Below are positions 30,734-37,142 of a stretch of 37,142 nucleotides of DNA, in pieces; within the stretch, counting starts at the first letter, position 1, and the number at the start of each line of letters is the position of its first letter. Both the position numbers and the translations under genes were made by a program. Where the stretch lies: contig JBHIFL010000042.1 in the NCBI GenBank assembly GCA_046761065.1, forward strand, positions 1-37,142, read 5' to 3'. The notes below the pieces were generated by a model, which made no database searches, was not told where the DNA came from, and saw only the letters and a program-made list of their open reading frames with translations. Source of the DNA: Candidatus Heimdallarchaeota archaeon. Lineage in GTDB: Archaea; Asgardarchaeota; Wukongarchaeia; Wukongarchaeales; JBHIFL01.

Positions 30734-31192
30734 TTGAAACCACTTAAGAAAATAAGTTTATTTGTTCTTATACTTTCCGTTCTTTTATTACTCTCTGGAG
30801 TAATTGCCCTCGGTTACACGTATCTGCTTTTCCCAACGCTCATCCCTTCTTATGTTGGTGGGGAACCATTTTATCTAGATGCGAGTAACAACTATAGTAC
30901 CCAATTCCCTTGGTCCGCTAACTCACGGCTGCACATCACGATTAAAGCCAACGATACGGTAGATGTCTATACCGATGGGAGTTACGTTTACAGTGGAACC
31001 TACTATGAATTAACAATAGAACCTAATGTAGTAGTCATGATTATGCTAAAGTCCAGTTCCTCCGTATCGGGACGGTTTACTGCACGCCAAGAGATTCCGC
31101 GGAAGATGCAGGTGGTTGCTTTTGGCTTACTGTTTCTGGGACTCGTGGCTACTACTTTATCAGTAGCCTTTCACGTTTGGCTCCAAAGATAA
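30734..31192 (+). CDS. Membrane protein: two terminal TM helices flanking a small beta-rich extracytoplasmic domain
   Basis: GGAGG RBS before TTG; hydrophobic N- and C-terminal helices with alternating beta-strand pattern between. Confidence 0.75.
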   Translation: MKPLKKISLFVLILSVLLLLSGVIALGYTYLLFPTLIPSYVGGEPFYLDASNNYSTQFPWSANSRLHITIKANDTVDVYTDGSYVYSGTYYELTIEPNVVVMIMLKSSSSVSGRFTARQEIPRKMQVVAFGLLFLGLVATTLSVAFHVWLQR

Positions 31193-31293
31193 CACCCGCG
31201 TCGCTTATTTTCATGCACCTCATTTTTATAATATATTTTAGCATGCTTTAAAAATCTAAGAGTCGAGAATAAACAGTCTTCCCAACTTAAAAC

Positions 31294-32247
31294 TCAGAGC
31301 CCTATCCTTGGTAGTATTTCCAAATTAACGAGGCCGTGGGCTAAAACCGCTCCAACATAACCCGTGGTCGAATCGGAGTGAGATAACAATAGTAGAAACA
31401 CACATGAAAAGCCAAGACCACCTGTAAAATACTTAAGAAAGGCATAGGCATCAAAAAAGGGCTGTCGCCAATGGCCACTTGCGAATAGTAAGGCAGAAAA
31501 GACATGACTTACGACAACGGGGAGAGGAAGTCCCCGGATCTCTTGTTTCATAAATTGAGAAGTACGCGTAAAAGCAAGAAGAAACCCATAGGGTAACAAA
31601 ACGCGGAATATAAATTCTTCAATCAACGGGCCAAAAATCCCACCATTTATAATCTTTTTTTCGACGTAATATAACCCAACAAAGCGGGAGTACAATGACC
31701 AAGCACGTACCAGATAGATCCCATATAGGACGAGCATCACTGCCCCTATGCCCTGCTCTGTTTTACGCTCGCCCGTTCGTAACACGAAGGGGCGCTGTAC
31801 TTCCCCTTGAGTCTGTTTGTAGAGGGTAATCATAAGTCCTGCAACTAAGACCCCCATGTAAAGCGTAAACAGATCTAGGTAAGTTCTCAAATACTTTAAA
31901 TAGTAAAGATACGAAAGTCGATAGGCAAATAAAAAAGTAAGTGGAAGGTATAGCCCAAGGATTATTAGGATAACGGTTCCTTTTGCCCATTCTGTTATGC
32001 GATCGTTTTTTCTCTGTATGAATGGATGCAATAATTTCCTTTTTGTATGTTTATAGAGAATAATATAGAACAATAGTACGATTGCAACAAACCAAATTCC
32101 CATGAAAAACGCAAAGGGATCTAACAGATAAAATTTTTGATTTCTAGCCTTGAATATCCCTTCTAAAGCAATAACAAAAGTTATATAGGCTAACACAGAG
32201 AAGTGATGCCTTTTTAGGTCCCTTAATGATTTTTTCCACACCTTCAA
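31294..32247 (-). CDS. CPBP (CAAX/Abi) family intramembrane metalloprotease with extended N-terminal TM region
   Basis: GPLIEEFIFR (EExxxR), LLFASGH (FxxxH), AHGLVN (HxxxN). Confidence 0.88.
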   Translation of the reverse strand: MKVWKKSLRDLKRHHFSVLAYITFVIALEGIFKARNQKFYLLDPFAFFMGIWFVAIVLLFYIILYKHTKRKLLHPFIQRKNDRITEWAKGTVILIILGLYLPLTFLFAYRLSYLYYLKYLRTYLDLFTLYMGVLVAGLMITLYKQTQGEVQRPFVLRTGERKTEQGIGAVMLVLYGIYLVRAWSLYSRFVGLYYVEKKIINGGIFGPLIEEFIFRVLLPYGFLLAFTRTSQFMKQEIRGLPLPVVVSHVFSALLFASGHWRQPFFDAYAFLKYFTGGLGFSCVFLLLLSHSDSTTGYVGAVLAHGLVNLEILPRIGL

Positions 32248-32446
32248 TTTGACCCATCTATCTTTTTTTAATTATCAATATCTCTTCTCTTGAGGATTAA
32301 CTCTCGCTTTCCAATTCAACAAGAATATCTCAACCCTGTACACCCCATATCAACCTTCCGATCCGTAAAAGGGCGGCTGTCAAAAAGGTTTCTGACAGGG
32401 GTCTTAGAAGCAATTGTCGCAATTTAATAAGAGTTTTGTACTGAAA

Positions 32447-33370
32447 TTAATGTGGTTGAGACGAACGAAATAAGGGGGTACTAAAATATTTCATTCCGTT
32501 ATCCGGAAGGACAGTTACGATGGTTTTCCCGGTCCCCAGCTCTTTTGCTTTTTTGAGGGCGATATATAGGATCGCCCCGGCACTTAACCCTATAAATAAG
32601 CCCTCTTTTTTTGCAGCCTTTTGGACTATTTCAAACGTATTGGGGAGTTCTCCCGCAGAGATTTCTATGAGTTCATCAAACCGTTCTCTTCGGAATAGCT
32701 GAGTCGGGTAGGGCTCCCCCGGATTTCGCAAGCCTTGAATACTAACTCCTAACGCTGGCATGACACCCACTATTTTTATGGTTGGATTGTATTCCTTTAC
32801 TCGCATTGAGGTGCCGACGCCGGTTCCTGCCGTTCCAATCCCAACAACGATCATGTCTACAGCGCCATTTGTTTGTTGGAGAATCTCCTTTCCTGTCGTT
32901 TCATAATGGGCCAAGATGTTCGCTGGGTCCTTAAATTGGTCCAGATCGACGTATTTGTCAGGATGGTCGTGAAGGAGTTTTTGTTTCAGTTCTATAGCTC
33001 CGCCTGTACCTTTTTCCCCAGGTGATAGGATTAATTCAGCTCCATGGGCGGTTATTATCTGCCGTCTCTCGGAAGAAACCGATTCGGGCATTACAACACT
33101 AATTTTGTACCCTTTAGCAGCAGCGATCATGGCGAGCGAGATACCGGTGTTCCCTGAAGTGGCTTCTAAAATAGTTTTATTATTGTTTAATTTTCCTGCA
33201 GCTTCAGCATATTCTATTAGATACAACCCCATTCGGTCTTTAACGGATCCCCCGATATTGTACCATTCTAATTTTGCATAAATGGTTGCGTCCTCGGGTC
33301 CAGTTAATCTGTTGATTCGGAGTAAGGGGGTCTTTCCGATTAAATCGGTAATATTCCTTGCGATGATCAT
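32447..33370 (-). CDS. Cysteine synthase family PLP enzyme (CysK/CysM/O-phosphoserine sulfhydrylase); start ATG 33370
   Basis: IGKTPL, GSVKDR PLP lysine, EATSGNTG, DQF..PAN..AH..TTG.EI, GIGTAGT, LPD.G.KY. Confidence 0.93.
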   Translation of the reverse strand: MIIARNITDLIGKTPLLRINRLTGPEDATIYAKLEWYNIGGSVKDRMGLYLIEYAEAAGKLNNNKTILEATSGNTGISLAMIAAAKGYKISVVMPESVSSERRQIITAHGAELILSPGEKGTGGAIELKQKLLHDHPDKYVDLDQFKDPANILAHYETTGKEILQQTNGAVDMIVVGIGTAGTGVGTSMRVKEYNPTIKIVGVMPALGVSIQGLRNPGEPYPTQLFRRERFDELIEISAGELPNTFEIVQKAAKKEGLFIGLSAGAILYIALKKAKELGTGKTIVTVLPDNGMKYFSTPLFRSSQPH

Positions 33371-33393
33371 CTCTGCACCCTTATTGCAATAAC

Positions 33394-33434
33394 TTAACAC
33401 TGTTAATTATAACGATAAATATTAACACTGTTAA
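33394..33434. promoter_or_regulatory. Two palindromic operators TTAACACTGTTAA upstream of the cysteine synthase gene
   Basis: Identical 13-mers at 33394-33406 and 33422-33434 flanking a TATA-like segment. Confidence 0.75.
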
Positions 33435-34008
33435 TTTAAAATTTTACTCGTAAACATAGAAGCTAAAAATATGCGGCAGAGCTTCTTTCTGGAATTATGG
33501 AACAAAAATTCTCTTAACACTATGATATGCTTGTTAGAACATTGTTTTGTGATTATCAAATACTATAGATGAATGTAATGGAGTAATTAGGTACTCAAGT
33601 TGAATAACTCGAACATCAATATAACAGATCTCCGAGAAGATTTCACATGAGTTAAGTATAGAGAGTGAAGTTTAATATTGCCTCCTTCTTCTTTAGAGGT
33701 GATAAATTGACTCAAACTTACCAAAATTCTCGTAAAGTCTAAAGGGGGTCAAGAAATAGGCTAGACCACCCTATTATGAGTTGTAAAGATCAAAACATTC
33801 CTCTTTCCATGTTTGGTATGGAGAGACGAACTTTGGAATGGGACAAGTCATAAGAGGAGGTTAGGTGAGGCAACGGAATGGAAAATTTCCAACAAGAAGC
33901 TGAACATAATAAAATTAGGTAGAATGCAAGATGAAAGGGTTTCCTATTAAGGAAGAGGAATTAATAAAGGACACAGTAACTCGGAAAAGAGTCAGAAATT
34001 AAAAGACT

Positions 34009-34043
34009 ATAACACCGTCAATTTTAAAATATAACACTGTTAA
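34009..34043. promoter_or_regulatory. Two operator copies flanking the TATA box of the HTH regulator gene
   Basis: ATAACACCGTCAA (34009-34021), TTTTAAAA (34022-34029), ATAACACTGTTAA (34031-34043). Confidence 0.7.
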
Positions 34044-34066
34044 TCTAAAATGATGAGGTTTCTCTC

Positions 34067-34438
34067 ATGAAGACGCCATGTGAAATTATCGTAACCAAGA
34101 TCTTGCCGAGTATCCGTGCGGTTTTAGTGAAAACTCTAGTAAATGATCATAAGATGAAGCAGGTGGAGGTCGCGAAGTTGTTAGGGATTACGCAAGCGTC
34201 TGTGAGTTATTATATGACCTCGGCGCGGGGAGCGGATAAACAAATCCTGTCCATTTTTCCAAAGGTGGAACAATATGGCCGTGACATGGCCGCAGCACTC
34301 ACACGGGAAAAAACATCAGGCGATCAAATAAGGGATCTGTGCCGAGCATGCAGGGATCTCCGCGAGCAAAAGACATTCTGCGACTACCATAGACATTTGA
34401 TCCAAATAGATGACTGCAATATCTGCCAAGACATTTGA
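34067..34438 (+). CDS. Archaeal HTH transcriptional regulator (COG2522-like) with Cys-rich C-terminus
   Basis: PCE....ILPSIRA..., MKQVEVAKLLGITQASVSYY HTH, C-terminal CRAC...FCDYH...CNIC. Confidence 0.88.
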   Translation: MKTPCEIIVTKILPSIRAVLVKTLVNDHKMKQVEVAKLLGITQASVSYYMTSARGADKQILSIFPKVEQYGRDMAAALTREKTSGDQIRDLCRACRDLREQKTFCDYHRHLIQIDDCNICQDI

Positions 34439-34839
34439 GAAAATCCTAAAAAAGCTAAGGTGGAGAGAATCCAGGCAAGATGCAAATAGTCAATTTTAGA
34501 GGAGATCAACTGATTCGTAGGTAAGGTTTCGCATGACCTAGCAGAGAAACTAACTGTTAAAAAGGACGTACGGTCACTTCAATAATTATTTTGAGCTCAA
34601 AAGCAAAATTATTTAAAGTTAGGAACTTGGGACAAGCCAACATCGTGATGGTGATGAACATAAAGGGTAGGATCCTCCCGAAGGCAATCTGAAAACTGGA
34701 ACTTATTTCTAAATCAGTGCCAAAGCAAATAGAGATACAAAAGACCATTACGCAAAGAATTCTTCGATAAGTAAGCATGTGCTGAGTAATTGATCGCTGC
34801 TTTTTTATAGAACGAATTTTTCCATCTCCCTTGATAAAT

Positions 34840-36009
34840 ATGAATATCGACGAAATTAGACATGATTTTCCGCTTTTAAACAAAATTATCTATCTGAATA
34901 ATGCCGCCACAAGCATCCTCCCTACACCCACACGACGGGCAATTGAGGATTATATGGAAAGACGGGCATATATGTACCCTTTTGATTTTGAACAGTTCTT
35001 CTCCGAGGTTTGGGATCGTCCGATCAGTCAATTATTAAACGCAGAACCGGAAGAGACGCTTTGTGTCCACTCGACCGCTGAAGGGCTCAATCGAATTTAC
35101 AATGGACTGAACTGGAATCAATCCGACAATGTGGTAACCTGTGATCTTGAATACCCAGCAGTGGTCATCCCCCTCTTTCAACTTCAGCAAAAGGTGAATT
35201 TTGAGATTCGCATGGCGACAAATCATAATGGGCAATATCCTATTGATACGATAGTAAATCTTATTGATGACAATACCCGGGCTGTTGTGCTCTCGCATGT
35301 TGAGTGGATTGGAGGATGGCGCCATGACCTGGAACAAATTGCCAAAACAGCCAAAGATTACAATGCGTTGGTGATTGTGGATCCCATCCAATCTTTAGGC
35401 GCATTTGAGTTTGATGTAAAAAGAATGGGAATTGATGCGCTTTCAGCCCAGGGCCTTAAATGGCTCCTAGCACCTTTTGGGATTGGTGTAATGTATATTA
35501 GAAGTGAAATTGTCGAAGAACTCTCCCCAGTTTATACTGGAGTCGGCAGTTTGGCGAATCAAAAAGAGTTCTGGGATATAATTCAAAAAGAAGTCTCCTT
35601 GATGGACGCGATCAAAACATGGCCCATTCGAACCGACATTCATAAGTTTCAATTGGGCTTACCAACTTGCCTCGCTATCGTTGGGCTCAGTCGATCTATC
35701 GATTATTTACTCAACTTGGGTCTCCAAAATATTGAAAAACGCGTGTTAGATCTTTCTGAATTCTTGACCCGTCTCTTGACCGAACACGAGTACAAGATCT
35801 TTGGTCCAACGGATCGTATTCATCAATCTGGAATCGTATGCTTTCGCACAAAGGTCAAAGATCCCACAGAGGTTTGTAAACGACTTGTTGAGCAGAAAAT
35901 ATATATTTCGGCTAGAGGAGGCATGCTTCGTGTCTCACCACATGTATACAACACCGAAGATGAGATAACCCACTGTATGGACGCTATCATGGCATTAGAC
36001 AAAGCTTGA
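34840..36009 (+). CDS. Aminotransferase class V / C-S lyase (cysteine desulfurase-like, lacking the catalytic Cys loop)
   Basis: IR.DFP, YLNNAATS, STAEGLN, LSHVEW..G, VD..QSLG, KWLLAP.G.G PLP lysine, RVSPH.YN. Confidence 0.88.
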   Translation: MNIDEIRHDFPLLNKIIYLNNAATSILPTPTRRAIEDYMERRAYMYPFDFEQFFSEVWDRPISQLLNAEPEETLCVHSTAEGLNRIYNGLNWNQSDNVVTCDLEYPAVVIPLFQLQQKVNFEIRMATNHNGQYPIDTIVNLIDDNTRAVVLSHVEWIGGWRHDLEQIAKTAKDYNALVIVDPIQSLGAFEFDVKRMGIDALSAQGLKWLLAPFGIGVMYIRSEIVEELSPVYTGVGSLANQKEFWDIIQKEVSLMDAIKTWPIRTDIHKFQLGLPTCLAIVGLSRSIDYLLNLGLQNIEKRVLDLSEFLTRLLTEHEYKIFGPTDRIHQSGIVCFRTKVKDPTEVCKRLVEQKIYISARGGMLRVSPHVYNTEDEITHCMDAIMALDKA

Positions 36010-36562
36010 AAGGGATAATCACCCTTTTCTGGGTTCTTCAATACGGATATTGGGTATACATCTTGGAATAAGCATTATTTCTGATAGTTGTAAACCTACT
36101 AGTATTGAATTCTATCTTTTACTTTCTTGCAGCAAAATTATCTTTTATCATGACCACGAAGAGAAATCTCAATAGCGATGGAAGCAGGGAAAGAGCTTAA
36201 ATGACCTTTCCAAACTCAATCAATTCACTACCCTACTAAGAAATGTCTTATTAATACTGTGTTGAGCCTAATCTACCTCTTCAGGTGTTATTCATCTCTA
36301 AGTATTGATTTTAAAAAGAAAAGTGTGCCAGAGAATGCCTATGGATATCCTTAATTGTTACTTCTTGCCCACAAGTAACATACTGAAACTTATAGGATTT
36401 AAGAATAGTTTCATCAAAACGTAACAGTTTTAGATGATTGCAGCCTATATACAATTGATGAAGATCATCTTCAGCGTAATAAAACAGAGTTAAATAACAA
36501 TTGGAACAAGAAACTGAAGAAGAAAAATTGCAACTGTACCTGAGAAATACGGGGATTTCATA

Positions 36563-37142
36563 ATGCGATACGCTCCACCTAATCTTTGTCTCAATGACTT
36601 TGATATCATCAAGCTTGATGATCTTTATCATGTATTTCATCTACAGGGCTCGCAAACCTATCTTTTGATCCAAAAAAACTAGAAACCAGCTACGGCCATG
36701 CTGTATCTCGTGACTTGATCTTTTGGGAGACAAAGGACCCAATTTTTTGGATTTCAGATCCGCCACACTTTGATAACGGTGCGCTTTGGACGATGCATAT
36801 TGTATCCTACGATAATCGACTTTGGATGTTCTATACGGGCTTGAATCAACGAGTCTACTTTCAACAGCATATTGGATTAGCATATTCCGATCGAACCGAT
36901 GGCACGGGTTGGATTCGATACTCTGAAAATCCAATTGTTTCAGCAGATCCTCAGTGGTACCAAACTGAAGGAGATATGGCATGGCGGGATCCATTTGTCG
37001 TCTACGATGAGGAACACCAACATTGGATCATGTATATCGCCGCAAAACATAATAACGGTCCTAAAGAGACCAGAGGGTGCATTGGAGTCGCATTGTCCGA
37101 CGATCTAATTCACTGGGAAGTCCAACCTCCGATTTTGGCCCC
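36563..37142 (+). CDS. GH32/clan GH-J five-bladed propeller glycoside hydrolase, -1 frameshifted near 36661-36680, truncated at window end
   Basis: Own translation: MRYAPPNLCLNDF..YHVFHLQ.. (frame stops TAG 36680); the -1 frame continues GHAVSRDLIFW, LWTMHIV, WMFYTG, HIGLAYS, WRDPFV, GCIGVALSDDLIHW. Confidence 0.85.

Follow-up and report, generated by a model that had tools for sequence, protein, structure and literature searches.

Background

The sulfur-response regulator SurR of Pyrococcus furiosus is a winged-helix (ArsR-type) protein that uses a CxxC redox switch, recognizes the motif GTT-N3-AAC and controls hydrogenase and sulfur-reduction genes. In Bacteria, control of cysK and other cysteine genes by sulfur supply is exerted by CymR (Rrf2 family) together with CysK and by CysB (LysR family), which sense via O-acetylserine or N-acetylserine. 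No description of the regulation of cysteine synthesis in Archaea was found in the literature that we searched. Here we analyze a stretch of 37,142 nucleotides from a Candidatus Heimdallarchaeota archaeon (contig JBHIFL010000042.1 of assembly GCA_046761065.1), referred to below as the window or, within this genome, as contig C42. It encodes a small helix-turn-helix (HTH) regulator that is divergent from a cysteine synthase-like gene, hereafter the cysK-like gene, and the promoters of both genes contain paired copies of one palindrome. We propose, with a probability that we estimate at roughly 0.75, that this regulator is a sequence-specific autorepressor that would also repress the cysK-like gene via a 13-bp palindrome, aTAAC-RSY-GTTAt; in this lineage its sequence is TTAACACTGTTAA.

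The window regulator resembles SurR in being archaeal, in having a CxxC and in the triplets of its motif, but the half-sites are reversed (GTT..AAC in SurR versus AAC..GTT in the window operator) and the SurR targets are not those of cysteine synthesis. Its likeness to CymR and CysB lies in the genes controlled, whereas the protein families are unrelated. The bacterial regulators IscR (Rrf2, [2Fe-2S]) and SufR (DeoR-type HTH, Fe-S) serve as a working analogy only; they are small autoregulated repressors located beside genes for a cysteine desulfurase and a scaffold protein, and their cysteine-ligated cluster reports iron-sulfur (Fe-S) sufficiency. In a similar manner, a paralog of the window regulator heads an iscS-nifU operon in this genome. 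A likeness at the level of protein sequence is found in ThiR, which Rodionov et al. are said to have described in 2017 (J Bacteriol 199:e00743-16) as the archaeal thiamine regulator. The window regulator differs from ThiR in that it has no match to the ThiN effector domain, in that its neighbors and predicted targets are cysteine genes, and in its operator, TAAC-RSY-GTTA. The operators of ThiR are reported to be palindromes as well, which vary between lineages and stand in the promoters under its control.

Results and discussion

Palindrome pairs flank the TATA regions of two divergent promoters

The source assembly comprises 4.42 Mb (4,419,285 bases) in 234 contigs with 42% G+C, and is 91.5% complete with 8.2% contamination. 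Promoter elements were read from the sequence together with archaeal promoter architecture, and their positions are predicted ones. Upstream of the cysK-like gene the palindrome TTAACACTGTTAA occurs as two exact copies, the predicted operators O1 (33394-33406) and O2 (33422-33434), with a center-to-center distance of 28 bp. Upstream of the regulator gene there are two near-exact copies, the predicted operators O3 (ATAACACCGTCAA, 34009-34021, three mismatches) and O4 (ATAACACTGTTAA, 34031-34043, one mismatch); no strand is assigned to any of the four. Read along the minus strand, the cysK-like promoter consists of O2 (33434-33422), the AT-rich TATA region TATTTATCGTTATAA (33407..33421), O1 (33406-33394) and, 14-24 nt past O1, a Shine-Dalgarno (SD)-like GGGTG followed by ATG 33370. 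The regulator promoter on the plus strand has the order O3, TATA box TTTTAAAAT (34022..34030), O4, SD GAGGT (34055-34059) and ATG 34067, and its TATA box is kept in a three-way alignment of the window, the closest ortholog locus (L031) and a decayed regulator copy on contig C23 of the same genome. Each promoter has one site that adjoins the TATA region upstream, on the side of the TFB recognition element (BRE), and a second that adjoins it downstream. The downstream sites O1 and O4 fill the stretch of roughly 20 bp that separates the TATA box from the expected start of transcription. A first-pass annotation, made from the sequence alone, had called an exact pair before the cysteine synthase gene and a near-exact pair before the divergent HTH gene, each bracketing a TATA region, and these calls are reproduced here in full.

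The exact 13-mer TTAACACTGTTAA is found in two copies in the whole genome, both at the cysK-like promoter, where an estimate from base composition gives about 0.3 copies by chance. For its refined core, TAAC-RSY-GTTA, the window contains three matches where 0.05 would be expected, a count that none of 100 shuffles reached. When three mismatches are allowed the 13-mer is not enriched (20 found versus 15.5 expected), so only exact and near-exact copies count. Core-site pairs with a distance of 11-40 bp number seven genome-wide, three of which are at regulator-family promoters (two in the window, one on C23). Single exact core sites number 57, below the ~115 expected by chance from composition, and most of them lie within open reading frames (ORFs). 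The first-pass annotation expected sulfur or Fe-S genes from a genome-wide scan; the pair on C23 leads to a CBS-CGL operon, and none of the intergenic single sites that were inspected (C92:4818, C37:36818, C117:6749 and C55:19238) adjoins recognizable sulfur genes. The palindrome was also considered as an RNA hairpin or terminator and rejected as such, a 6-bp stem with a 1-nt loop being implausible. An Rfam scan of 31000-37142 gave no match, and a scan for bacterial-type terminators found none.

The regulator would bind this 13-bp palindrome, probably as a dimer because the site is a dyad; a homodimer prediction scored 0.40 versus a mark of 0.42, with controls at 0.00, and was used neither way. 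Since the sites flank each TATA box, regulator bound on the BRE side and in the gap between TATA box and start would exclude TBP/TFB and RNA polymerase, and this exclusion would result in negative autoregulation as well as repression of cysteine synthesis. Repression is thus inferred from the geometry of the sites. The archaeal regulators MDR1, LrpA, Phr and TrmB bind over or just downstream of the TATA box and thereby block recruitment of TBP/TFB or polymerase.

Footprint of the operator across archaea

Phylogenetic footprinting covered 80 loci from other species, taken from one-genome-per-species contigs of 715 kb in total, with Jordarchaeia and Freyarchaeota records among the Asgard comparison genomes. 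Many of these loci come from related genomes, and the figures are to be read as consistent patterns and not as statistics. An exact TAAC-N3-GTTA is present within 150 nt upstream of the regulator at 27 of the 80 loci, in agreement with the first-pass prediction that the motif would precede orthologous regulators. Moreover, 30 of the 40 exact core matches in the 715 kb fall within 150 nt upstream of a regulator, a space that makes up 1.7% of the sequence, which corresponds to a 178-fold density. Several of the remaining 10 are located ~400-440 nt past the regulator start, before the next gene (cysK), where they overlap the cysK TATA box. Regulator core promoters that contain the core were found in Asgard archaea, Thermoplasmatota, Hadarchaeota, Theionarchaea, Methanofastidiosia and Aenigmatarchaeota, and 48 distinct sites yield the symmetrized consensus a-TAAC-R-S-Y-GTTA-t, a 13-bp dyad.

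At the closest ortholog locus (L031, Heimdallarchaeota, 79% identity) the regulator is preceded by the block ATAACACCGTTAA-GTTTAAAT-ATAACACTGTTAA, an operator-TATA-operator arrangement that is near-identical to that of the window while the flanks diverge. O4 is identical in this ortholog, and the O3 position reads ATAACACCGTTAA there and ATAACATCGTTAA in the C23 copy. In other Asgard relatives a ATAACGGCGTTAT-type site directly adjoins a TATA-like element on its downstream side, in front of regulator genes whose next neighbors are cysE-cysK or a CBS-like gene; these relatives also have two tandem sites before cysK orthologs with 69-72% identity to that of the window, the regulator gene being next. 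In a second Asgard family (f12; L173, L174 and L176) the identical TTAACACTGTTAA precedes a cysK with only about 42% identity. Within the Thermoplasmatota clade the cysK promoters read ATATATAACGNNGTT(T/A), and site and TATA box overlap here. A search of 41 genomes of family f9 retrieved no regulator (E <= 1e-15), and none of 7 cysK loci of this family has the motif. Taken together, the palindrome in the regulator's own and the cysK core promoters across phyla, in a position over or beside the TATA box, fits the autoregulated repressor with a readable DNA motif that the first-pass annotation had envisaged.

These patterns also bear on the notion that a different factor binds the palindromes, or that they are functionless leftovers of a duplication of regulator and promoter, with the HTH protein having other targets. 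The regulator, its promoter and an upstream ORF remnant do look duplicated between C23 and C42, and similarity between such copies is possible without selection. However, a duplication fails to explain the exact pair at the cysK promoter, and the same core precedes regulators whose identity is only 33-49%, in six phyla or classes, and is absent where the regulator was not found. We consider this reading of the sites, in either form, very improbable.

Several observations do weigh against autorepression through this operator. At loci L039-L042, L081, L090-L092, L095 and L098 the sole site is 1-3 nt upstream of the TATA box, which is a position compatible with an activator. An exact core site is missing from about half of those Thermoplasmatota loci that share the same synteny. 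The closest cysK orthologs (77-78% identity; L153 and L154, from genomes G020 and G040) carry a different palindrome, ATGACACTGTCAT, whose half-sites each differ from those of the window operator by an A-to-G change, placed symmetrically, and a regulator with a matching ATGACACTGTCAT-type site of its own was not found in these two genomes. Finally, the relatedness of many of the genomes means that the locus counts overstate independence. The two homologues in G020 and G040 were considered as candidate regulators for ATGACACTGTCAT and rejected, one being a ThiN fusion and the other a short form whose own palindrome is a different one.

The archaeal activators Ptr2 and TFB-RF1 use the position immediately upstream of the TATA box. 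The regulator could accordingly be an activator or a dual regulator that recruits TFB/TBP from sites upstream of the TATA box and switches cysteine genes on. This would account for the upstream-only loci, but the window, the Asgard relatives and the Thermoplasmatota clade have a site between the TATA box and the start or over the TATA box, where occupancy is incompatible with initiation, and we regard activation as improbable. Autorepression, extended to the cysK-like gene, is therefore the reading that we carry forward.

The regulator family and its relation to ThiR

The regulator gene (34067..34438, plus strand) codes for 123 amino acids (aa) with an XRE-like HTH at about residues 30-51 and a helical half that is rich in Cys and His. 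In Pfam it reaches 18.7 bits for HTH_3 (PF01381) against a cut-off of 23, while HTH_3 is matched by all 24 aligned homologues, the best with an E-value of 8e-07. The regulator has no meaningful match in NCBIfam, neither it nor the 24 homologues match the Rrf2 domain at E up to 1, and a profile of the 24 compared with solved structures retrieves generic HTH domains only and no solved relative. The family is large and archaeal, with 89 close homologues, 1052 representative clusters at E <= 0.001 and, in addition, archaeal Atlas clusters. It has no Pfam family of its own and is uncharacterized; no publication describing the regulator was found in the literature searched. The first-pass description of it as poorly characterized was thus apt, given an HTH_3 match below threshold and no relative in the PDB.

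The ligand pattern P4-C5-E6, C92xxC95, C105xxH108 and C117xxC120, which had been read from the window regulator in the first pass, is conserved across the family. Invariant in the close homologue set are P4, C5, E6, C92, C95, C117 and C120; C105 and H108 are present in about 85% of that set and are lost together. C5 and C92 are coupled as well, for among 229 homologues 211 have both, nine have neither, four have C5 alone and none has C92 alone. Because of this coupling the pattern suggests two sub-sites, one formed by C95, C105, H108, C117 and C120, and a separate C5-C92 pair that may act as a disulfide or as joint ligands. In the window, residue 5 is encoded at 34079-34081 and residue 92 at 34340-34342. 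An AlphaFold2 (AF2) model of the regulator, with a predicted local distance difference test (pLDDT) score of 82, has seven helices, and the cysteines are within helices and not in zinc-ribbon hairpins.

Three longer homologues carry a C-terminal ThiN domain (PF10120; E 1e-46 to 1e-52), and an HTH module joined to ThiN is what we take to be the architecture of ThiR. In phmmer searches these ThiN-fused proteins (P0129, P0168 and P0217) match residues 1-120, 1-112 and 1-122 of the query, such that the whole 123-aa regulator aligns with their first ~120-130 residues, cysteines included: P4-C5-E6 and C92xxC95 are present in all of them and C105, H108 and C117xxC120 in most. Since the ThiN-fused homologues align over its full length, the window regulator is, as judged by alignment, a stand-alone version of the ThiR DNA-binding module. 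No thiamine genes were seen at the regulator loci.

The module family has three intact members in this genome (in the window, on C55 and on C79) and one decayed member (on C23). The paralog at C55:24403-25341 (locus L150) is ThiR-like, with a Cys-bearing N-terminal module followed by ThiN (3.6e-40). The paralog at C79:12201-14930 (locus L149) has 126 aa, is without C5 and C92, and heads an operon with IscS-like, NifU_N and DsrE-like genes. Upstream of it, a TATA box is followed by TTAACAATAGTTAA, which has the same half-sites with a 4-bp spacer. This genomic setting suggests that the C79 paralog is a sister regulator for Fe-S assembly.

What the regulator may sense

Our best guess, at somewhat less than even odds, is that the conserved Cys and His residues hold a metal center, either an Fe-S cluster or a redox-labile Zn-thiolate site. 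The regulator would require this center in order to bind DNA, and its presence would signal that cysteine or sulfide suffices. A shortage of cysteine would prevent formation of the cluster or thiolate, and the shortage of sulfur would thus derepress both promoters. Of the two, an Fe-S cluster is our tentative choice, also at somewhat less than even odds, and a redox- or persulfide-sensitive thiolate site is a possibility to which we give still less weight. By analogy with small Fe-S regulators, which likewise have conserved Cys/His residues in helices, a sensing metal center is plausible, as the regulator has seven of these and no other candidate sensor.

The ThiN-fused relatives, however, keep the same cysteines, so that these residues belong to the DNA-binding module as such and are no specific sign of sulfur sensing. 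ThiR is also reported to be active after ordinary aerobic purification. Both points speak against the sensing part of our proposal and favor a structural metal site over a sensing one. According to this alternative, which we hold to be rather unlikely though not negligible, the cysteines would hold structural Zn only, and the signal would be a metabolite bound elsewhere or a partner protein, or there would be no effector and autoregulation alone would provide homeostasis. The relatives that share the full Cys/His pattern have ThiN as their effector domain, and CxxC...CxxC is a common Zn motif. Yet a helical protein of 123 aa offers no obvious extra pocket for a metabolite, and cysteines within helices do not resemble those of zinc-ribbon hairpins.

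CysK is a partner of CymR in Bacillus subtilis, and partners of CysK insert a C-terminal Ile into its active site. That the window regulator ends in -QDI would agree with such a partner, but the C-terminal Ile is not conserved, the 79% identical ortholog having a longer tail and most homologues ending in Lys. Insertion of the regulator tail (-DI) into CysK was accordingly set aside.

A broader version of the sensing proposal is that the family is the archaeal sulfur-supply master switch, in which a single ancient module of an HTH plus Cys/His helices, equipped with an Fe-S cluster or with a thiol switch that is possibly the C5-C92 pair, would directly read whether cysteine or sulfide suffices, with paralogs devoted to cysteine synthesis (window), to Fe-S assembly (C79) and to thiamine (C55, with ThiN). 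We regard this version as speculative and doubtful at present.

Extent of the regulon and the C23 locus

Genome-wide, the stringent paired-site criterion selects only the two window promoters and C23:37286/37307. The latter locus (C23:37286-40746; L151) contains a decayed regulator copy, which is interrupted by three in-frame stops and one frameshift, and its operator pair, ATAACATCGTTAA and ATAACATTGTTAA, is intact. Intact CBS and Cys_Met_Meta_PP (cystathionine-gamma-lyase-type) genes follow, each 86% identical to its counterpart at the closest ortholog locus. This C23 CBS-CGL operon, for the route from homocysteine to cysteine, is probably a second target, controlled in trans, as the intact window regulator is the only plausible occupant of the C23 operators. 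Consequently, with an operator pair on another contig, the window regulon is not self-contained as the first-pass annotation had stated. The scans of this genome did not extend the predicted regulon beyond the cysK-like gene, the regulator itself and the C23 operon.

The 570-bp gap between the cysK-like gene and the regulator holds a stop-interrupted ORF remnant, which suggests that a copy of regulator and promoter moved out of the CBS locus and into the cysK locus, with later decay of the original. The remnant (33780..34028, plus strand, one in-frame stop) derives from a small ORF that precedes the regulator at the closest ortholog locus; by tblastn it has 45% identity over 85 aa (E 1e-13), and it belongs to no Pfam family. 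At loci L031, L033 and L034 the counterpart of this ORF, a putative gene of no known family, is 106-117 aa long and overlaps the start of the regulator, with the operator pair lying inside the 3' end of the ORF.

The predicted target in the window (32447..33370, minus strand) encodes a cysK/cysM-like pyridoxal phosphate (PLP) enzyme of 307 aa (PALP, 3.1e-64). Its start is most likely ATG 33370 rather than GTG 33400, as alignments with the family models begin at residue 7 when ATG is taken as the start, and O1 and O2 are therefore both upstream of the gene. The SVKDR lysine and the TSGNTG loop are present in the translation, and its scores are below the family cut-offs (313 bits versus 344 for cysKM, TIGR01136; 298 versus 394 for cysM; 285 versus 351 for cysK). 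No cysE (serine acetyltransferase, TIGR01172) over the cut-off was found in the 91.5%-complete assembly. Because of this and of the sub-threshold scores, the substrate may be O-phosphoserine or something else than O-acetylserine. At least five further PALP cysK/CBS-like paralogs are present in this genome.

The gene that follows the regulator (34840..36009, plus strand) encodes a class-V aminotransferase-fold PLP enzyme of 389 aa that is C-DES/SufS-like (Aminotran_5, 6.8e-51). It scores 149 bits with the SufS model, for which the cut-off is 475, and has a full-length match to the L-cysteine/cystine C-S lyase C-DES (E 2e-23) that reaches residue 380. Alignments with desulfurases in the PDB end at residue 335-357, before the catalytic-Cys loop, and no Cys is seen by eye in ISARGGMLRVSPH, the expected place of the persulfide loop. 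This lyase-like gene had been included in the regulon by the first-pass annotation, an assignment that we do not retain: it has its own TATA-like element, TTTTTTATAG, ~30 nt before the ATG, and 34439-34839 contains no copy of the motif, only a half-site-like AACTGTTAA near 34553. What would link it to the system is only that, at other loci too, class-V aminotransferase genes are neighbors of regulators. The outer flanking genes, for an Rce1-like protease and a GH32-like hydrolase, are unrelated to sulfur.

Gene neighborhoods of the regulator

Neighborhoods of the regulator fall into at least eight arrangements, with cysK, cysE, cysS, tRNA-Cys, CBS/CGL, class-V aminotransferase and NifU genes. 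A large Thermoplasmatota clade has the order tRNA-Cys(GCA), regulator, cysK, cysE and cysS, with IscS/NifU a few kb upstream. Its loci L044, L046, L049, L053, L063 and L077 form a compact cysteine island in which tRNA-Cys(GCA) is directly upstream of the regulator and cysK-cysE-cysS follow. In one Thermoplasmatota and one Hadarchaeota genome, cysE-cysK-aminotransferase is divergent from the regulator. A class-V aminotransferase gene is divergent from the regulator in Methanofastidiosia, and the same gene lies ~0.9 kb upstream on the opposite strand in Theionarchaea. Aenigmatarchaeota have regulator, aminotransferase and NifU in order, and the Heimdall ortholog is followed by CBS and a cystathionine gamma-lyase-type enzyme. 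As read from their gene content, these differing arrangements all point to cysteine supply and its use in Fe-S assembly.

Conclusions

Genome comparison that spans at least six phyla or classes connects a protein family with a 13-bp operator and a set of target genes, and thereby provides a directly testable candidate for the control of cysteine supply in Archaea. It also suggests that the DNA-binding module of ThiR occurs by itself as a regulator, and that paralogs of this regulator serve cysteine and Fe-S assembly. Operator and family together allow the prediction of cysteine and sulfur regulons in uncultured archaea, among them Asgard lineages. If the family does act as a sulfur-supply master switch, then Archaea would have their first described cysteine regulon as well as their first described sulfur-status sensor, analogous but unrelated to the bacterial regulators IscR, SufR and CymR.

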